Shown piece by piece: positions 26,465 through 34,115 of a stretch of DNA of 39,305 nt. Source of the DNA: Vampirovibrionia bacterium (lineage in GTDB: Bacteria > Cyanobacteriota > Vampirovibrionia > LMEP-6097). The notes under the pieces are model-generated. The model was not told where the DNA came from, did not search any database, and was given only the letters and a program-made list of their open reading frames with translations. The stretch lies in contig JBMOEX010000003.1 of the NCBI GenBank assembly GCA_049314535.1, forward strand, positions 1 through 39,305, in the 5' to 3' direction. Position 1 is the first letter of the stretch. Each line of letters begins with the position of its first letter. The translations under genes and the position numbers were made by a program.

Positions 26465-26853
26465 TGACAGCGACAGAAGAAAAGAAAAACAAAAAATTAA
26501 AATCCTTAGCATTAATTCTTAGATCGCTTGCCCCTGAATCACAAAGGGCTATTTACAAACAGCTTCCAGACGAATTAGTCAGAAGAATAACTCAGGTAAG
26601 CCTAGATATAGATAAAGAATTAACCAAAGAAGACTGGGAAATTTTCACTCACTCTTGGCCAGAATTTTCACATTTAATCAGTGGCGTAGTACAAGAAACC
26701 CAATATGAACACTGCGCAAAATTTAAAAATAAAGAAAGACCAAAAGTACAGGAGTACCTAGACTATAAAATGGGGAATAAAAAAGGGAGACCTAATTTAA
26801 GTAGTTCAATTACCCGAATAATCGATAACTTCATATCCCAAAATGCTAATTAA
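26464..26853 (+). CDS. fliG: FliG N-terminal-domain-only protein
   Basis: Occupies the fliG slot between fliF and fliH. KSLALILRSLAPESQRAIYKQLPDELVRRIT resembles FliG_N. Only 129 aa. Confidence 0.55.
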   Translation: MTATEEKKNKKLKSLALILRSLAPESQRAIYKQLPDELVRRITQVSLDIDKELTKEDWEIFTHSWPEFSHLISGVVQETQYEHCAKFKNKERPKVQEYLDYKMGNKKGRPNLSSSITRIIDNFISQNAN

Positions 26854-29770
26854 AGCACAAAAAAGAAAAGCCACAAGTTCGACAAGTTTTCAAAACCAAT
26901 CAGCAGCTAGATTTGAGCAAGCTGAACAATTAATGCCGTCATTACAAGAGGTTCAGATTTCTGAGCAAGTACAAGCCCCTGTTATTCACATTGACAGAGC
27001 TGAAATTCAGAAAGTAGTTGAAATAGAAAAACAGATCATACTGCAAGAATTTGAAGCTGAAATAGCAGAAAAAAGAAGAATTGTTGAAACAGAGATACAG
27101 AGCAAACTTGAAGAAATAGAAATCAATTTAGCAAATATACAACAACGTGAACATGAAATAGAAACTATTTTATCTACAGAGAAACAAAATTTAGAAATCG
27201 AAAAAGCTGCTGAACAAGAGAGAATTCAGACCATAGAGCAGCAGCTTCAAAGTCAATTCGAGACTGCGATTCAGCAAGGCTTTGAACAAGGATATCAAGA
27301 AGCTAAAACAAATTTAGATAAAGTAAGTAGTGAATTTGAAGAAATTATCCATAATATGCATCGCTCTAAAGAAGTACTTCTTCTAGAGATAGAACCACAA
27401 ATCACCAGCATAGCCCTAGAAGTAGCGAGAAAAATTTTACAAAGGGAAAGCAAACTAGATAGCAACCTGATTCTAGAACAAGTAAAAAGCGCCATCCGAA
27501 AAGTTACTATTCGAGGTGGTCTCCTCGAAGTAAGTATCAATCCAGAAGATACTCAGCATCAAACTGACCTAGAAAGTGCCTTAGATAAAATGCTTGATAA
27601 AGAAGTTAGATTAATTTTCAAGGAAGATCCCAGTGTAAGTCAAGGCTCTTGCATAGTTGATACCCAAGGCGGCCAATTAAATGCAAATTTTAAAATTCAG
27701 ATCGAGTCTGTTAAATTAGCTTTTGAGAAATACTTCGGCAAAGAAATAATTTTAATAGAGGCTCCAGATGAAGAGGAAATACCACTTGAGTTAGAGGCAG
27801 TCACAGAGTTAGAAGAGATACTGCCTGAATTAGAAGCAGTCACAGAGTTAGAAGAAATACCACTTGAGCTAGAAGCAGTCACAGAGCCAGAAGAAATACT
27901 GCCTGAATTAGAAGCCGTCACAGAGTTAGAAGAGATAACACTTGAGCCAGAAGCAGTCGCAGAGCTAGAAGAAATAGCACTTGAGCTAGAGCCAGTCACA
28001 GAGTTAGAAGAGATATCACTTGAGCCAGAAGCAGTCACAGAGCTAGAAGAGATAGCGATTGAGATAGAAGCAGTCACAGAGTTAGAAGAAATACCACTTG
28101 AGTTAGAGGCAGTCACAGAGCTAGAAGAAATACCACTTGAGCTAGAGCCAGTCACAGAGTTAGAAGAGATACCACTTGAGCTAGAAGCAGTCACAGAGCC
28201 AGAAGAAATATCACTTGAGTTAGAAGCAGTCACAGAGCCAGAAGAGATCAACTTCACCGAGAATCTAGATAATCAATTTATTTTTGAAAGTGCAGTAGAC
28301 GCACAAAGTCAACAAAATTCAAATGAAGCCTTTTCAGCCGATACTTTAGCTTTAATGAACGAACTAGATTTAGCCTTCAATCCAAGAGACATTAGCAATT
28401 CCACCGATGAATACATCAACCTTGAGACCCTAGATGCCGAGCTGGAATCGGTTTTAAGTGAAGATGTTAATCATGTTGAGATAAAAATAGAAGATGTTAA
28501 TCATGTTGAGATAGAAGCAGAAGGTCTTAGTCATATCGAAAACACAGAAATTGAAAATTGCGAGCAGTCTCTTGAAAATCTTAATACACCTGAAAACCCT
28601 AGCGAGATTAAAGACGATATAGAAATTAAAGACCACAACGAAATTAAAAACTCTAATAAAACTGAAGATATTAACTTAGAAGATTTACAGGCATTATTTG
28701 CAGCTGACAGTGAAGAAGAAGAAGAAGAAGAAGAAGCAGAAGAAGAAGCAATCACAGAACATCCAAACAATCAGCTTATTTTCGAGAGTATAACAAGCAC
28801 GCTGGATCAACACCACTCAAGTGAAGCTTTCTCTGCTAATGCTCTACAATTGATGAACGAACCAGATTCAGCCTTCAATCAAAAACACATTAGCAATTCC
28901 ACAGATGAGCACATCAACATTGAGACCCTAGATGCTGAGCTGGAATCGGTTTTAGGCAAAGAGGTTAATCATGTTGAAATAAAAATAGAAGATGTTAATC
29001 ATGTTGAGATAGAAGCAGAAGGTCTTAGTCATATCGAAATAGAACCGACTGAAGATCTTAGTAAAACTGCAAGCCCTAGCGAGATTAAAGACGATACAGA
29101 GATTAAAGACGATACAGAAATTAAAGACCACAACGAAATTAAAAACCCTAGCAAAATCGAAGATATTAACTTAGAAGATTTACAGGCATTATTTGCAGCT
29201 GATAGTGAAGAAACTGTAGATGAGGAAACGAATGCAGACCTTGATTTCATTCTAGATCAACTTAAAGAAAATACACCAATTGATCTAGAAAATGATGGGT
29301 CTAATGAGAGTAAAGTAATAGAGGAGACTGATGAATTAGATAAAATCATGGACAAATCAGATTTAGATAAAATAGATTTAAATTTCGACCTTGAGTCACC
29401 AGATGAAGAGGATTTGGAGGCACTGGAAGAGAGCATGGATGCACTATTGACAGAAGTTGAGGGTGAAGACACAGATGAGCTCGAAGCTTTACTCGGGGCA
29501 AGCAGTATTAAGTTTAACTTCTCAGAAGATGATGATGAGCTGCCAGAAATTGTCACAGACGAACTTGAAGAAGATGATGATGACAAAGAACTGCCAGAGA
29601 TTGTCATTGAGGAGATTGAAGATGATGATGAGGTGATAACCAGTATCACCGATGAAGAAGAAATAGATTTCAGCGAAAATCCTAAAAAAGATCCAGTCTT
29701 TGAAGAATTTGATGAAGGTTACGATGATGACTACAGTGAAGGCAGCGATCCTCGCTTTCCAGATTACTAA
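26843..29770 (+). CDS. fliH: FliH/SctL-family export protein with very long acidic repeat tail
   Basis: AIQQGFEQGYQEA (AxxxGxxxGxxxA), IALEVARKIL, VSINPED and DPSVSQGSCIVDTQGGQLNA in the first ~300 aa; then ~665 aa of D/E-rich repeats. Confidence 0.8.
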   Translation: MLIKAQKRKATSSTSFQNQSAARFEQAEQLMPSLQEVQISEQVQAPVIHIDRAEIQKVVEIEKQIILQEFEAEIAEKRRIVETEIQSKLEEIEINLANIQQREHEIETILSTEKQNLEIEKAAEQERIQTIEQQLQSQFETAIQQGFEQGYQEAKTNLDKVSSEFEEIIHNMHRSKEVLLLEIEPQITSIALEVARKILQRESKLDSNLILEQVKSAIRKVTIRGGLLEVSINPEDTQHQTDLESALDKMLDKEVRLIFKEDPSVSQGSCIVDTQGGQLNANFKIQIESVKLAFEKYFGKEIILIEAPDEEEIPLELEAVTELEEILPELEAVTELEEIPLELEAVTEPEEILPELEAVTELEEITLEPEAVAELEEIALELEPVTELEEISLEPEAVTELEEIAIEIEAVTELEEIPLELEAVTELEEIPLELEPVTELEEIPLELEAVTEPEEISLELEAVTEPEEINFTENLDNQFIFESAVDAQSQQNSNEAFSADTLALMNELDLAFNPRDISNSTDEYINLETLDAELESVLSEDVNHVEIKIEDVNHVEIEAEGLSHIENTEIENCEQSLENLNTPENPSEIKDDIEIKDHNEIKNSNKTEDINLEDLQALFAADSEEEEEEEEAEEEAITEHPNNQLIFESITSTLDQHHSSEAFSANALQLMNEPDSAFNQKHISNSTDEHINIETLDAELESVLGKEVNHVEIKIEDVNHVEIEAEGLSHIEIEPTEDLSKTASPSEIKDDTEIKDDTEIKDHNEIKNPSKIEDINLEDLQALFAADSEETVDEETNADLDFILDQLKENTPIDLENDGSNESKVIEETDELDKIMDKSDLDKIDLNFDLESPDEEDLEALEESMDALLTEVEGEDTDELEALLGASSIKFNFSEDDDELPEIVTDELEEDDDDKELPEIVIEEIEDDDEVITSITDEEEIDFSENPKKDPVFEEFDEGYDDDYSEGSDPRFPDY
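27773..28240 (+). repeat. Coding tandem repeat, 12 x 39 bp (13-aa unit EEIPLELEAVTEL)
   Basis: Twelve contiguous degenerate copies counted in both DNA and protein, with no spacers. Confidence 0.95.
28271..29212 (+). repeat. Internal duplication of ~445 bp (28271..28717 and 28769..29212) within fliH, with a (GAA)8 run at 28712..28735
   Basis: Both copies contain NQ.IFES...ETLDAELESVL...VNHVEIKIEDVNHVEIEAEGLSHIE...EDINLEDLQALFAADSEE. Confidence 0.92.
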
Positions 29771-29806: not shown

Positions 29807-30382
29807 ATGAGTACATTAAATGTTACTGTAAGAGCGGAGTACACGCCGAACCCCAATAGTTTAAAATTCATATGCAGTGAAACCCTTTATCCATACGGAG
29901 GATCACTATCATACAGCTCTCAAGCGGCAGCGGAAGCGGCTGAAAACCCCGTAGCTATAAGATTGTTCAACATAGAAGGCTTGAATAAAATATTTATCAT
30001 GTCAAATTTTGTCACCATTGACAAAGAAGATCATATTAATTGGAAAGATATTCACCTAGAAGTGAAGGAAGCTATTAAAGATAATTTATCCTCTTTTAAA
30101 AAATGGGCTGAAGAAAACGCCCCAGCCGTCCCAGAAAGTGATGGTAGTGAAGGCGGTCTTAGAGTAGAAATAGAAAGAGTGCTTGATAAAATCAGACCTT
30201 CTTTAATGGCTGACGGTGGAAATATAGAACTCGTGGACATAATCGGCACGGATGCGAGATTAAGGATGGTAGGAGCCTGTGGGACCTGCCCAAGTTCACT
30301 TATGACGATGAAGATGGGAGTGGAGAGAGCTTTGCTTTCTGAGCTGCCTGGTAAGGTTGAAACTGTGACGCAGGTTTTTTAG
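29807..30382 (+). CDS. Nfu1/NifU-family Fe-S cluster scaffold (Nfu_N + NifU_C domains)
   Basis: N-terminal motif TPNPNSLKF; C-terminal motifs IRPSLMADGGNIEL and GACGTCPSS (CxxC). Confidence 0.9.
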   Translation: MSTLNVTVRAEYTPNPNSLKFICSETLYPYGGSLSYSSQAAAEAAENPVAIRLFNIEGLNKIFIMSNFVTIDKEDHINWKDIHLEVKEAIKDNLSSFKKWAEENAPAVPESDGSEGGLRVEIERVLDKIRPSLMADGGNIELVDIIGTDARLRMVGACGTCPSSLMTMKMGVERALLSELPGKVETVTQVF

Positions 30383-30399
30383 GAAAATATTTTTTAACT

Positions 30400-30873
30400 T
30401 CAACTCAATAACTGGTATTCGTAGAAAAGATCAAATAATTGATTCCTAATTTTCCGAAGCTCTCTGTCAGTACGTTCCCCAAGTGTAAATAAAGAACAGT
30501 GCGAATTATCTTTTTCTAAGGCTGTATCTAAAACAATTAATTGCCTTTCTCGGGATTCATCTGTAAGAGAGCGAACTTGAATGCATTTGATTTTTGCAAA
30601 AGCAGCCGACTGTTCTTGACGTAGTCTCTGAGTGCTTCGTGCTGACCTATTAATTGCATTATCTTTCATAATGTTGAAATTTACATAATTTTCTCTATGA
30701 CAGCTAAGTCCCCTGCTACGAAGGTCACTAATTGACATTGAGCTATCAAGAAATCTTGAGTTATCATCAATATCTGCAGGACTAGAATAAGTCCTCAACA
30801 AAACCTCATTATTATCAACCACTGCAGGTGAGAATTCTGACTGTTTTATCGTTTCATCTTCGAGAGTGCGCAT
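30400..30873 (-). CDS. Hypothetical protein, possible ADP-ribosyltransferase-fold toxin
   Basis: 157-aa ORF with EVLLR...GLSCHR...NSHCSL spacing reminiscent of small ART-fold proteins; overlaps the upstream gene. Confidence 0.55.
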   Translation of the reverse strand: MRTLEDETIKQSEFSPAVVDNNEVLLRTYSSPADIDDNSRFLDSSMSISDLRSRGLSCHRENYVNFNIMKDNAINRSARSTQRLRQEQSAAFAKIKCIQVRSLTDESRERQLIVLDTALEKDNSHCSLFTLGERTDRELRKIRNQLFDLFYEYQLLS

Positions 30874-31487
30874 TGAAACCCCATAAGCAAGATTACAAGT
30901 AATTGTAAATCAAATTCTATATTACTAAATTCCTTATCGTCCTCTCCGAACTCTTTATCTTTAATTTTGGCATAATAAGAATAAATACCAGAACCATAAA
31001 AACCTATATCAAATCTAGCTTCTGGCAAATTCCACCAAAAATTTATCTCACCATCATTCATCAAAGAAACTATGGGCTGCTCAATCTCATCAAGAATGCG
31101 CCTGTCTTTTAATAAATATATAAAGTCCTCTGCTTCTTGAATCGCTTTAGCTGTAGGTGCTTTCGCACATTCACCATCCCAAGTATCCTCCAAAACAGCA
31201 AAAGAACGAACTTTTTCAATTAATAATTGTCCGCTATCTCTAAGAGTAGACTTCCAAGGAACACTCTCTGATTTATTAAATACCACTTGTTGAGTATTAG
31301 GATTAAGATTAAGCCATAAAGGCTTTCCATCGGCTAGATAAATATAAGTAATCACACCTTGCTTGTAAGTATGTGATGATTCAATAGCAAATCCTTGCTT
31401 AGATGAAGTCCCAGAGTTCCAAACATTTTCTGGGAGAGTAGCAGACTTCATCGTCTCAGGCATATTCATGATAGATGCTAAATTCAT
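30846..31487 (-). CDS. Hypothetical protein (WDG-motif family), middle gene of the TIGR04255-like module
   Basis: SD AGGAGAGG upstream; motif LEDTWDGECAKAP...DGEINFWW. Confidence 0.7.
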   Translation of the reverse strand: MNLASIMNMPETMKSATLPENVWNSGTSSKQGFAIESSHTYKQGVITYIYLADGKPLWLNLNPNTQQVVFNKSESVPWKSTLRDSGQLLIEKVRSFAVLEDTWDGECAKAPTAKAIQEAEDFIYLLKDRRILDEIEQPIVSLMNDGEINFWWNLPEARFDIGFYGSGIYSYYAKIKDKEFGEDDKEFSNIEFDLQLLVILLMGFQCALSKMKR

Positions 31488-31499
31488 AACCTCTCCTAT

Positions 31500-32312
31500 T
31501 TATCCATTTAAATCAACTAACATTAGTTTCTTTGATACTTCCGCAACAAACATTGATGACAGAAGCTTTTTATTATTATCATGCATATCATCAAGAAATC
31601 TCAAAACAGTTTCATAATTTAGCCATTCACACATATTGGTTAAGAGCATATTATGATCTATTAAGATTGTTGTATTATCAAGATTTCTGATATTCATTGT
31701 TCCAGAGCTAACATTTAATTGATTTAAATATTCGAATAGTCTTCCATCATAAGATATTTTTTCAAACCAGCCAGAATTAGAATGCCAGCGATGACCACTA
31801 TCAAAGGACTTTCTGTTCAGATAGTTATTATCTCTAAAAAGAGTACTTAGCTGATAGTCCTCTCCCTCTTTATTTTTTTTTATAAATGCATCTATGTATC
31901 TTAAAGAAATCGATTCAACTGAATGAGATGAACTTTGAGTAGAATTTTGGAAAATTTGCTTGAGAAGAATAGAAACTATTCCAATAAATCCTTTCCATCT
32001 TTGATAATCAAGACAACGAAGACTTAAGCCAGAAGGCAATACCGCAAGAATCCATTCAGGATTACCATCTTCTTTAAATCTCTTTAATTCAAAACCAAAA
32101 TCATCTTCATAAGAAGGTGACACATCTTCAGCCTGAAATTGAATAGCCCTTACTTTTAGTTCCTCTACCTTAGGAAGAAAAGCTTGCAATTCTTGATTAT
32201 CTCTAATTCCCCGTATTAGCTCTTCTCTTCGAGATTTTTCCAAAGATGAAACAAAGCCCAAATTAAAACTAGCTTCCAATATAGAATGAGCTCTATTAAT
32301 AGGTTCAAACAT
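31500..32312 (-). CDS. TIGR04255-family-like protein
   Basis: Size (270 aa) and pattern FEPIN.AHSILEASF...CLDYQRW..F...ISLRYIDAF...LIDH...LDDMHDNNK recall this family. Confidence 0.7.
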   Translation of the reverse strand: MFEPINRAHSILEASFNLGFVSSLEKSRREELIRGIRDNQELQAFLPKVEELKVRAIQFQAEDVSPSYEDDFGFELKRFKEDGNPEWILAVLPSGLSLRCLDYQRWKGFIGIVSILLKQIFQNSTQSSSHSVESISLRYIDAFIKKNKEGEDYQLSTLFRDNNYLNRKSFDSGHRWHSNSGWFEKISYDGRLFEYLNQLNVSSGTMNIRNLDNTTILIDHNMLLTNMCEWLNYETVLRFLDDMHDNNKKLLSSMFVAEVSKKLMLVDLNG

Positions 32313-32375
32313 AAATAACCATACAATAACTAAAAGTAATTTTAACCCAAAGTTACAGACTAGGTAATATAATCC

Positions 32376-33167
32376 CTAAATCATCAGTAAAATCACACCC
32401 AAAATAATTCGATAAACCACAAATAAAGTAAAAGTATTCTTACTTAAAAACTTAATTAAAAAATCTATAGAAATTAAACCAGCAAGGAAGCTAGTAAAGA
32501 AGCCTACAGCGAAATATAAGCCCTCGTTCATTAAATCAAAACTCGCACCAGCAGCGGTATAGATTTCAAACAGATCTTTAGTCGCAAGCAAACCAGCACC
32601 CGCAATAGCTGGGCTACCCAATAAAAAAGCAAAACGCACAGCGGCAGCACGACTTAAGCCTAAGCTTAATCCAGCCAAAGAACAAATCCCAGAGCGAGAT
32701 ACTCCAGGGAATAATGCAAGGCACTGTGCCAGACCAATTAAAACAGTATCTTTAAAAGAGATATCTGAAATTTCTTTTTTCTGAGGAAAAAGCTTATCTG
32801 CGATAAAAAGCAATACTGCCACAATAAATAAAGTAAAAGCTATAAACTTCGTAGAACGCAGTAATAATGAGTGTTCAAAGAATGGCTTACAGGTAAAACC
32901 AATAATAACTACAGGTAAAGTAGCCACAAGAATAGCAAGTAATAATTTTCGCTGTGATTTATCTAGAATCAAGCTCAGAAGATCTTTTCTAAAATAAATT
33001 AAAATCGCAAATAAAGTTCCTAAATGTAAAAAAGCATCAACGTTAAGCCCAGGGTCCTGCCAGTGAAGCAGCTTTGGGAAAAGAATCAAGTGAGCGGAAC
33101 TGCTAATCGGCAGCATTTCAGTTACACCCTGAACTAAGCCGAGAATAAAAATCTGGAAAATATCCAT
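32376..33167 (-). CDS. uppP: Undecaprenyl-diphosphate phosphatase
   Basis: Motifs LGLVQGVTEMLPISSSAHL, HLGT, AQCLALFPGVSRSG and FVVYR. Confidence 0.95.
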   Translation of the reverse strand: MDIFQIFILGLVQGVTEMLPISSSAHLILFPKLLHWQDPGLNVDAFLHLGTLFAILIYFRKDLLSLILDKSQRKLLLAILVATLPVVIIGFTCKPFFEHSLLLRSTKFIAFTLFIVAVLLFIADKLFPQKKEISDISFKDTVLIGLAQCLALFPGVSRSGICSLAGLSLGLSRAAAVRFAFLLGSPAIAGAGLLATKDLFEIYTAAGASFDLMNEGLYFAVGFFTSFLAGLISIDFLIKFLSKNTFTLFVVYRIILGVILLMI

Positions 33168-33203: not shown

Positions 33204-34115
33204 TTAAACAACAAATAAATCAGGACGATATTTTTTAGTCATTTTTAAAGCCTCTTCTATTCTCCAGAAAAGAATTTTTTTATGATCACCAGACTGTAAG
33301 ACCTCTGGAACAGTCTTTCCATAAAAATCTTTAGGGCGAGTATAATGTGGATACTCTAAAAGACGTAAAGCCAGAAAGCTTTCTAGAGATTTAACACCAT
33401 AGTCCAAAAGCAAATCCTGAAGGCGTTTCAGCTCAGCTTTAGTAAAATCATAATCCTTTAGATGAAAGAGCTCTTGAGCTGTGCTAAAGCTGTCAGCAGC
33501 ATGGCTTTCAGCAGAGCCTAAGACATTAGGCACTAAACGAGAAACAGCGTCTATAACTGCCATAGCAGCAAGCTCACCACCCGTTAAAATAAAATCCCCC
33601 AAAGAAATCACTTTAGTCGCTAAAGAATAAATCCTCTCATCGAAACCCTCATAGTGACCGCAAAGCATGATGATTTGTTTTTTCTGCGCGAGCTCTGAAA
33701 CGAGCTGCTGATTTAAGACTGCACCTCGTGGTGAAAAAATTATCACCTCAGGGGCGTGTAGCTGAACTCCAATTTCTGCGTTTTCGTCGTCCTCATGATC
33801 CTCATGTATTCGTGATACACTGCGGTCATTCGTCCTCCTCAGCCTTGAACTTGTTCGTTCAGCCACACGCCCCTCTGAGGCACTAGACGATATCACAGAT
33901 TCAAGACAGTCATAAAAAGGCTGCGGTGAAAGCAGCATCCCAGCACCGCCGCCATAAGGGGTATCATCCACTTTTTTATGTTTATTAAGAGAGAAGTCTC
34001 TAGGATTATGCACGAGAACCTCACAGACTCTAGATTTCTGGGCATTCGCCAAAATACTAGTATTACAGTAAGACTGAATTAATTCTGGAAATAGAGTCAG
34101 GACATCAAAGCGCAT
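33204..34115 (-). CDS. trmD: tRNA (guanine-37-N1)-methyltransferase, with two in-frame insertions
   Basis: Motifs VLTLFPE, VDDTPYGGGAGM, CGHYEGFDER, SLGDFILTGGE, LLEYPHYTRP and VPEVLQSGDH. Confidence 0.96.
   Translation of the reverse strand: MRFDVLTLFPELIQSYCNTSILANAQKSRVCEVLVHNPRDFSLNKHKKVDDTPYGGGAGMLLSPQPFYDCLESVISSSASEGRVAERTSSRLRRTNDRSVSRIHEDHEDDENAEIGVQLHAPEVIIFSPRGAVLNQQLVSELAQKKQIIMLCGHYEGFDERIYSLATKVISLGDFILTGGELAAMAVIDAVSRLVPNVLGSAESHAADSFSTAQELFHLKDYDFTKAELKRLQDLLLDYGVKSLESFLALRLLEYPHYTRPKDFYGKTVPEVLQSGDHKKILFWRIEEALKMTKKYRPDLFVV
33751..33873. mobile_element. 123-bp palindromic MITE/RPE-like element inserted in frame in trmD
   Basis: Terminal inverted repeat GGGGCGTGTAGCTGAAC / GTTCAGCCACACGCCCC (16 of 17 match), central TGTAT-N5-ATACA hairpin, GC-richer than its flanks, length divisible by 3. 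Confidence 0.8.

Follow-up and report, generated by a model that had tools for sequence, protein, structure and literature searches.

A TIGR04255 protein and an exchangeable gene pair form a candidate tripartite toxin-antitoxin-like cassette in a Vampirovibrionia bacterium

What could be the function of three small genes packed between the housekeeping genes nfu and uppP of a Vampirovibrionia bacterium? The 39,305-nucleotide stretch analyzed here (the window; contig JBMOEX010000003.1 of assembly GCA_049314535.1, positions 1 to 39,305) contains at this site three minus-strand open reading frames (ORFs) that run in the same direction and that we call A, B and C. The initial annotation had described them as co-oriented and tightly packed, and the ORF coordinates agree, with a 12-bp gap between A and B (31488-31499) and a 28-bp overlap between B and C (30846-30873). 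We propose, with slightly better than even confidence, that they constitute a tripartite toxin-antitoxin-like or defense module, in which C would be an NAD-using effector, B its neutralizer and A a constant accessory protein. We favor this reading because the genes form a tight operon, are gained and lost as a unit and are conserved across phyla, because a constant first gene is combined with co-varying pairs, and because the third genes are of effector type.

Within the genus, the cassette is a clean presence/absence polymorphism of ~1.9 kb. It is carried by four of the seven genus genomes and by none of 34 more distant relatives. A, B and C are all found in the genome of the window (G000), in G002 and in G004, while G005 has B and C at the start of a contig, A lying beyond the contig end. 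In the three other genomes (G001, G003 and G006), nfu adjoins uppP, with 53, 34 and 51 bp between the matched ends, respectively. When the empty site of G001 is aligned locally to both junctions of the window, the insert measures ~1.94 kb. A 13-bp segment present once in this empty site occurs as two imperfect copies in the window (10 of 13 bases agree), and may represent a target duplication, a microhomology used in recombination or a chance resemblance. A, B and C are real genes under purifying selection: rough Nei-Gojobori estimates between congeneric genomes give ratios of nonsynonymous to synonymous divergence (dN/dS) of 0.33-0.37 for A, 0.41-0.51 for B and 0.10-0.15 for C, the most constrained of the three. 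Against G002 and G004, synonymous divergence is, by the same rough estimate, 0.09-0.17 in the cassette and 0.18-0.41 in the flanking nfu and uppP. Since the former values lie below the latter, the cassette seems to have spread later than the split of these lineages. In G005, C carries two in-frame stop codons and B is open; toxin genes often decay in this way.

The same triplet, in the same order, is present in distant cyanobacteria and in Pseudomonadota, and the co-occurrence on which the initial annotation had staked its proposal therefore extends to two phyla. A C-family profile search of 401 genomes sampled across the phylum of the window gave matches in 11, and in all 11 a B-type gene lies directly upstream of C, one of these B genes being truncated. 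Five large cyanobacterial genomes (G341, G269, G295, G247 and G201) carry a divergent C-type gene after a B-type gene, and four of these loci begin with a TIGR04255 gene (three of them were scored, at 128-167 bits). G201 holds a degenerate copy, with an intact C-type gene, a B shortened to 118 aa and no TIGR04255 gene ahead of it. Five other, Nostocales-like genomes (G275, G279, G195, G411 and G401) contain a closer C and a B with the WDG domain described below, preceded by a different protein of 100 aa that gave no match to the TIGR04255 hidden Markov model (HMM) even at E≤10. In all five of these loci, the 100-aa gene, B and C are flanked by an ndh-like membrane gene and by a gene of 376 aa; in G401, C is interrupted by a ~1.1-kb insertion that contains two ORFs (135 and 214 aa) and resembles an insertion element in appearance. 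Outside the phylum, a contig from a Hyphomicrobiales metagenome-assembled genome (MAG) displays a TIGR04255 gene truncated at the end of the contig, then a B of 196 aa and a C of 162 aa, with spacers of 2 and 4 bp. A locus search with the single protein P0020 returned one locus. In the Pseudomonadota sample, the B+C pair occupies 8 of 30 TIGR04255 loci. B and C stand together in every C-family locus examined.

The family of the first gene is far from restricted to this triplet. Its HMM matches 48 of the 401 genomes of the window's own phylum, with three loci in the genome of the window itself, as well as 32 of 401 genomes of Pseudomonadota, the phylum of the Hyphomicrobiales MAG, and none of 14 control genomes. 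Besides the window, we examined 61 TIGR04255 loci, namely the 30 best of each sample and the second extra copy of the window's genome. In 59 of the 61, the TIGR04255 gene is followed by two close, co-oriented genes, as found by script in 54 and by eye in five that exceed the gap limits of the script; of the remaining two, L092 runs off its contig and L081 is an exception. The second and third genes vary together as pairs. Three clusters of third genes with a '[ST]Q.CD[LI]'-type motif, recognized by eye, account for 15, 10 and 7 loci, and the ADP-ribosyltransferase (ART)-like C family accounts for 13 (12 by cluster or HMM and L063 by eye). Smaller families are found in 4, 3 and 2 loci and singletons in 5, L081 and L092 having no third gene to score. 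In the three commonest clusters (32 of 61 loci), the motif follows a hydrophobic strand by eye; these proteins have no Pfam family, and one of them matches phrog_4575, a family without assigned function. Pfam searches with 14 second and third proteins returned no family, apart from a sub-threshold HTH_3 match in one second gene.

The two other cassettes of the window's genome illustrate this diversity. The one on contig 42 (3857-5573) encodes an A protein of 247 aa followed by proteins of 113 aa and of 209 aa, the latter with a 'SNACDI'-type motif, and it is inserted between two paralogs that encode ABC transporters (543 and 565 aa; ABC_membrane + ABC_tran). The one on contig 54 (6173-7787), located between dnaB and a SIMPL-family gene, encodes an A protein of 249 aa, a protein of 152 aa and a 131-aa HEPN-like protein that is one of the singletons (PADLOC HEPN_IX, E 5.7e-4; Pfam HEPN, E 0.059; Ribonuc_2-5A, E 0.036; Rx4H by eye).

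On a quick maximum-likelihood tree of the A proteins (62 sequences), loci with the same pair type tend to group together (16 changes against 40.8 in shuffles), without being monophyletic, and the B+C pair has to be placed at least 4 separate times. To illustrate this, one B+C carrier (L037) is nested in a clade of carriers of cysteine-motif pairs (support 99), and the two extra A copies of the window's genome come out as sisters (support 100), each with another gene pair. The A protein of the window groups with three A proteins from Pseudomonadota that are also B+C carriers (support 100), which points to a transfer of the whole triplet between phyla. The best explanation of these data is a mobile cassette belonging to an undescribed but widespread family, which always opens with a TIGR04255 gene and continues with an exchangeable gene pair. 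A full-text search across ~8.4 million papers and preprints yielded none that mentions TIGR04255, and no description of the cassette was found in the full texts, supplementary tables being outside the search.

We then consider the three proteins, beginning with C. A word-indexed search gave only 3 relatives, and an exhaustive phmmer search 186 cluster representatives at E≤1e-3, 37 of them at E≤1e-10. Nearly all are stand-alone proteins of 150-200 aa (148-230 aa by eye in the 150 listed representatives). In an alignment of 121 sequences (119 of the 150 listed representatives, the query and P0003, fragments and partial matches being left out by eye), E23, S57 and H125 are invariant, and at least 90% of the sequences share S15, P16, V19, R27, P32, G55, R60, R101, D116 and L146. 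The arginine, serine and histidine picked out in the initial annotation are thus among the best conserved positions of the family. Pfam gave no hit for C at E≤1 and no family for the 121 members at E≤0.1, and the PDB sequence search yielded no relative of the family; as judged from these searches, C founds an unannotated family. An IcmE match of the C profile in the PDB search was rejected as a repeat artefact. Weak matches of C (26-30% identity) to ORFs of 542-650 aa in relatives were judged spurious, and the weakly matched ORF of its own genome reads as an ABC-F-type ATPase with a charged linker. A tblastn search of plasmids with the relative P0014 gave no match.

C is predicted to adopt the split β-sheet ART/NAD-binding fold. 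Its AlphaFold2 model has a mean predicted local distance difference test score (pLDDT) of 93.5 and a predicted template modeling score (pTM) of 0.87. It was compared with 48,161 representative chains by VIA-align, a method independent of Foldseek. By our own count, the first 28 and altogether 39 of the 50 matches listed are NAD-using proteins of the ART superfamily, among which we take Tse2, AvrPphF, CC0527, protein 6b and BC2332 to belong. The matches include 9ld3, a 179-residue chain with bound ADP-ribose (Z 7.0), Tse2, second-best in this search (Z 6.0, 107 residues), mouse Tpt1 (Z 5.4), AvrPphF-ORF2 (Z 5.2), CC0527 (Z 4.5), and TreX and DarT (Z 4.4). Scabin, PltA, Tne2, pertussis toxin, LT, SPN, NarE, CopC and MbcT score lower, as do TreTu, pierisin, SdeA, ParT, TccC3, PARPs and RhsP2. 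A second structural look placed two Aeropyrum Tpt1 chains on top, with Z 7.9 (8tg4_A) and 7.6, the next match having Z 4.4. These chains align over 95-96 residues with a root-mean-square deviation (rmsd) of 2.9-3.0, through their residues 84-181, which correspond to the NAD lobe; the alignment of 8tg4_A (96 residues, rmsd 2.9) spans residues 10-157 of C. An ART-like fold, as had been guessed from the sequence of C, is therefore upheld by the model. C itself is not a member of the Tpt1/KptA family (PF01885, PTS_2-RNA), since its profile does not match and only the C-terminal lobe aligns.

In the model, strands 24-31 and 56-60 contain R27 and S57, respectively, and H125 opens strand 125-130. This order is the one expected for the three active-site positions of ARTs, to which the residues could correspond by topology only. 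The signatures of the ART clades, as named in PMC9503650, are H-H-h, H-Y-[EDQ] and R-S-E, and the R-S-H pattern of C fits none of these three.

For B, the word-indexed search found 10 relatives, all from the same genus and at least 77% identical. Pfam, NCBIfam and PHROGs contain no family for B, and its profile gave no meaningful match in the PDB sequence search. The remote relatives of B turned out to be the genes directly upstream of C-family genes: an HMM built from one B alignment (A6) recognizes six other loci with E 2.6e-15 to 3.5e-7. These proteins share a C-terminal domain of ~110 residues, composed of an [NDT]WDG[YE] motif ('TWDGECA' in B, 'NWDGYDA', 'NWDGYGA' or 'DWDGYEG' in relatives), a helix, and then P..[VI]....[DE]G.I.[FL].W. 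Besides WDG, the stretch P138...E147-I148..W151-W152 of B is conserved. The five most divergent cyanobacterial relatives lack the WDG letters and have the rest of the domain. In contrast to this domain, the N-terminal 60-90 residues are variable and rich in S, T, N and Q. The alignments of relatives thus bear out the low-complexity N-terminus and WDG domain noticed earlier in the middle protein. B also gives a weak partial match to PDC-M32A, a PADLOC candidate, over the C-terminal third of the profile (positions 263-358 of 375; E 3.1e-4). The same region is matched by the middle gene of L063, only 20% identical to B (E 1.6e-4), and PDC-M32A is matched by 4 of the 9 members of another B alignment (A3), the five divergent cyanobacterial relatives having no match. 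We propose that B could be the cognate, antitoxin-like partner of C. In the ESM Atlas, B and C have only unnamed neighbor clusters, apart from a match of C to DUF6098 at 0.91.

As to A, the HMM check of its supposed TIGR04255 membership was positive, with a score of 63.4 bits (cut-off 30; E 2.7e-17) and with residues 10-258 aligned to positions 6-246 of the 252 of the profile. On the strength of this full-length match above the curated cut-off, A belongs to the family. Pfam has no family for 36 TIGR04255 members at E≤0.01, one stray match aside, and the PDB sequence search found no relative of A. PHROGs gave no match for A, B or C; weak matches were obtained there for the HEPN-like protein, for a TIGR04255 protein from a cyanobacterium and for one third gene of the cysteine-motif type. 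The invariant positions of A are Y103 and D219, and P47, R138 and Y139 reach at least 90% conservation. The AlphaFold2 model of A, built from 36 sequences (pLDDT 84.9, pTM 0.85), consists of two β-α-β4-α repeats. Its best Foldseek matches are AdoMetDC chains (E 2e-4) with a template modeling score of only 0.23-0.30, and VIA-align retrieves RepDE (Z 7.4), AdoMetDC (Z 7.0), TBP (Z 5.5), YwmB, a 'TBP-like protein', Med18/20 and guanidino kinases. We read the predicted fold as a TBP-like pseudo-dimeric saddle, all scores being middling. A SecB-like fold, which had been considered for this protein, finds no counterpart here: the top 50 structural matches are of the RepDE, AdoMetDC, TBP-like and guanidino kinase kinds, among others, without any SecB chain, and a family outside this list may still match.

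If these proteins form a tripartite toxin-antitoxin-like or defense module, C would be an NAD+-using enzyme that either modifies a target, nucleic acid or protein, or destroys NAD+ itself, through an atypical active site comprising R27, S57 and H125, with E23, R60, R101 and D116 nearby. B would bind C and neutralize it via the WDG domain. A, as the constant accessory, would stabilize, regulate or trigger the B-C pair, and might hold the variable and probably disordered N-terminal segment of B on its saddle-like sheet. The gene layout, the family memberships, the predicted folds, the joint inheritance of the genes and the presence/absence polymorphism are results of the analysis; we infer the enzymatic activity, the toxicity, the B-C and A-B contacts and the role in phage defense, as well as the assignment of toxin and neutralizer within the pair; a role of A as chaperone, regulator or trigger is speculative.

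Several points weigh against this proposal. The toxicity and B-C binding of the candidate module are predictions from sequence and models. A and C have no match in PADLOC-DB v2.0.0 at E≤1, and B has only the weak partial match to PDC-M32A. With the model of C, Foldseek found nothing at E≤1e-3 in the PDB or BFVD, and the structural Z-scores of C (at most 7.9) are middling, best values of 7-8 being common for models without a clear match. The equivalence of R27, S57 and H125 to the ART triad comes from strand order and not from superposition, and C shows no evident counterpart of the catalytic glutamate that is canonical in toxin ARTs. The nearest structure, Tpt1, is an RNA-repair enzyme and not a toxin, and even with this family an hhalign comparison (C family against 11 Tpt1 sequences from genomes) gave a probability of 2.4%. 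G005 is a 54%-complete MAG, in which the stop codons in C could be assembly errors. The A tree is a quick one whose more careful search is unfinished, and related genomes share labels. The RNA-library contigs that bridge the gene junctions (see below) can hold DNA and do not prove a single transcript.

The genomic context must be added to these points. A Pfam scan of 96 flanking ORFs from 60 loci returned mostly housekeeping genes. In about a dozen of the 60 loci, by our own reading, a gene of the restriction, toxin-antitoxin, transposon, integrase or phage kind lies no more than 1.5 kb away (Uma2, GmrSD, PIN, PrlF/YhaV, a C-5 methylase, a type I R subunit, an integrase, a phage terminase and, in two cases, TniQ/TniB), a count given without a background rate and from which we claim no enrichment. 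Most cassettes thus stand single among housekeeping genes, and not in the obvious defense islands that the initial annotation had in view. Solitary small cassettes between unrelated genes are usual for toxin-antitoxin modules.

One would also wonder whether C could serve a harmless purpose. The strongest rival explanation, that we nevertheless consider unlikely, is a non-toxic, NAD-dependent processing or repair of nucleic acids, in which C would act like the NAD lobe of Tpt1/KptA and place ADP-ribose onto an RNA or DNA-end phosphate, A and B binding the substrate. The best matches of C are indeed the two Tpt1 chains, well ahead of the next one, and the saddle-like fold predicted for A resembles those of the nucleic-acid binders TBP and RepDE. 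In addition, the H-H-h clade of ARTs, which holds KptA, is described in PMC9503650 as mainly devoted to RNA repair, small-molecule modification and soluble ADP-ribose derivatives. However, C lacks the N-terminal RNA-binding lobe of Tpt1, only residues 84-181 of the chain being aligned, and similarity to Tpt1 is absent at the profile level, Pfam PTS_2-RNA not matching C. Neither the sporadic distribution, with presence or absence within one genus, nor the combination of the same first gene with unrelated pairs, including a HEPN-like protein, is what such a pathway would lead one to expect, and no RNA-ligase, 2H, Macro or Nudix family was seen among the scanned flanking genes.

It is also conceivable, and in our view quite unlikely, that the polarity is reversed, the constant TIGR04255 protein being the effector or enzyme and the variable pairs interchangeable sensor or specificity modules. 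The few invariant or nearly invariant polar residues of A (Y103 and D219, then R138, Y139 and P47) would suit this idea, as would the enzymes AdoMetDC and guanidino kinases among its matches and the fact that the sensor parts vary most in many defense systems. It is the variable third genes, however, that are of effector type, by the ART fold predicted for C and the HEPN-like protein of contig 54, whereas A has a heterogeneous set of structural matches, all of them weak (Z at most 7.4). Moreover, the five Nostocales-like loci combine B+C with the 100-aa first gene that is not a TIGR04255 member, and the pair therefore appears to be workable without A. Type VI secretion systems (T6SS) are known to combine constant adaptor proteins with variable effector-immunity pairs, and one could thus imagine an inter-bacterial locus in which C is a secreted toxin comparable to the T6SS effector Tse2, B its immunity protein and A an export adaptor or chaperone. 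The rank of Tse2 among the matches of C, and the presence there of several Rhs and T6SS ART toxins, would fit. We hold this to be very unlikely, given that the C family is stand-alone, without an N-terminal trafficking domain by eye in the 150 listed representatives, that the cassettes stand single between housekeeping genes, and that no secretion-system family was found in the 96 flanking ORFs, the genome itself not having been searched for secretion systems. That the three genes are neighbors by chance, or are hypothetical genes unrelated in function, is hardly tenable: this idea is already contradicted by the same triplet in the same order in two phyla, by the tight gene junctions and by the joint gain and loss within the genus.

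Returning to the tripartite toxin-antitoxin-like module, a parallel can be drawn with known systems. In TAC operons, the constant chaperone gene comes last; in the cassette, the constant protein comes first and the ART-like gene last. The analogy with TAC systems made in the initial annotation therefore holds for the combination of one constant protein with many second and third genes, and fails for the gene order, which differs from that of CmdTAC. Both kinds of system have three genes, with one constant protein family alongside different toxin/antitoxin-type pairs, and the variable low-complexity extension of the second protein could, by analogy, be recognized by the constant one. The constant protein itself differs, being here a TIGR04255 member with a predicted TBP-like duplicated fold and with no SecB chain in its top 50. 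According to PMC11618068, CmdTAC is a toxin-antitoxin-chaperone system whose CmdT is an mRNA ADP-ribosyltransferase. An effector of ART fold is likewise proposed for the cassette, but C has no sequence similarity to annotated ART families, and A and C have no match in PADLOC-DB v2.0.0, a release that may lack CmdTAC models.

With Tpt1/KptA, C would share a minimal ART fold, 8tg4_A being its best structural match. It differs by the missing RNA-binding lobe, by the lack of a PF01885 match, by the very low hhalign probability, by its location in a mobile cassette and by its R/S/H pattern in place of H-H-h (PMC9503650). DarT (DarTG), ParT (ParST) and MbcT/NatT (RES-Xre) are stand-alone ART-fold proteins of ~150-220 aa encoded next to a cognate neutralizer, as is proposed for C and B. 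Their structural similarity to C is weaker than that of Tpt1 (DarT Z 4.4, 4.3 and 3.9, ParT 3.0, MbcT 3.3, NatT 2.8), B is neither a macrodomain nor an Xre/DUF2384-type protein in the libraries searched, and the cassette has a third, constant gene. Three-component toxin-antitoxin operons such as omega-epsilon-zeta comprise an accessory or regulator, an antitoxin and a toxin. The cassette would present the same accessory-antitoxin-toxin order in one operon; A, at ~250 aa with a duplicated α/β fold and no sign of DNA binding, is unlike the small ribbon-helix-helix repressor. Finally, the WDG domains of B and of its 20%-identical relative match the C-terminal third of PDC-M32A. Only ~100 of the 375 profile positions are covered, however, and neither A nor C matches PDC-M32B; a full-length PDC-M32A accompanied by PDC-M32B is not found, and the cassette is not PDC-M32. 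In PMC12429752, PDC-M32 is listed only as a hypothetical system.

What would be the significance of such a cassette? TIGR04255 was so far an NCBI family of unknown function, and it now appears as the fixed first gene of cassettes in about one tenth of the sampled genomes of two phyla, with effector-like partners (an ART fold, a HEPN-like protein, cysteine-motif families). If our proposal is true, it would provide a new accessory principle for tripartite toxin-antitoxin or defense systems, a new family of minimal NAD-using enzymes whose active site is unusual, and a new antitoxin-type domain. A broader and more tentative idea, to which we give rather less than even odds, is that TIGR04255 marks a large unrecognized class of modular three-gene conflict systems, spanning at least Cyanobacteriota and Pseudomonadota, with a TBP-like sensor, chaperone or trigger and many exchangeable effector/neutralizer pairs, one of the commonest being that of a new WDG protein with a new family of minimal R-S-H ARTs. 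Tripartite toxin-antitoxin-like modules are already known, and there is a real chance that the cassette represents a new class. The cassettes are small and self-contained (~1.9 kb here) and hence easily synthesized and tested.

The layout of the locus is given in the table below. The cassette is convergent with nfu and co-directional with uppP, and it is slightly poorer in GC (0.30-0.36) than the flanks.

Table. Features of the cassette and of its immediate surroundings (window coordinates).
Feature	Position	Strand	Description
Gene A	32312..31500	-	270 aa, opens the cassette; TIGR04255 protein; predicted duplicated TBP-like fold
Gene B	31487..30846	-	213 aa; variable S/T/N-rich N-terminal part and conserved C-terminal WDG domain
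WDG domain of B	30915..31217	-	residues ~91-191, from conserved alignment columns
Gene C	30873..30400	-	157 aa; stand-alone protein of predicted ADP-ribosyltransferase fold, unannotated family
Left copy of the 13-bp imperfect direct repeat	30396..30408	.	overlaps the end of C (its last two codons and the stop)
Right copy of the 13-bp imperfect direct repeat	32338..32350	.	in the uppP-A spacer
Spacer from uppP stop to A start	32313..32375	-	63 bp
nfu-like gene	29807-30382	+	PDB NifU/NFU1 matches, best E 9.6e-24
uppP	32376-33167	-	undecaprenyl-diphosphatase, E 1.8e-28

In the spacer 5' of A, a simple scan detected no σ70-like and no terminator-like site, and transcription of the cassette by read-through from uppP is therefore possible. 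Promoter-like sites in the scan were fewer than in shuffled sequences (8 against 10.7). RNA-library contigs from four libraries of three studies map to the cassette. Two of them bridge the A/B junction with zero differences (X8, 474 nt, 31098-31571, and X16, 412 nt, 31122-31533), and two others bridge the B/C overlap (X17, 30799-30961, and X19, 30719-30951). They cover the cassette in part, and the uncovered parts carry no information either way. Two contigs from X8 and X16 follow nfu up to 30383 and then go over into a sequence that resembles neither the window nor the G001 empty site, which suggests a third allele in the population at the nfu-uppP intergenic site.

Two other ORFs of the window were noted. 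A 975-aa ORF at 26843-29770 (plus strand) is extremely acidic, with long tandem 'ELEAVTELEEIP'-type repeats and duplicated blocks further on. A 303-aa ORF at 33204-34115 (minus strand), downstream of a 358-aa ORF, looks TrmD-like by eye, with an inserted S/R/E/D-rich segment of ~50 residues.

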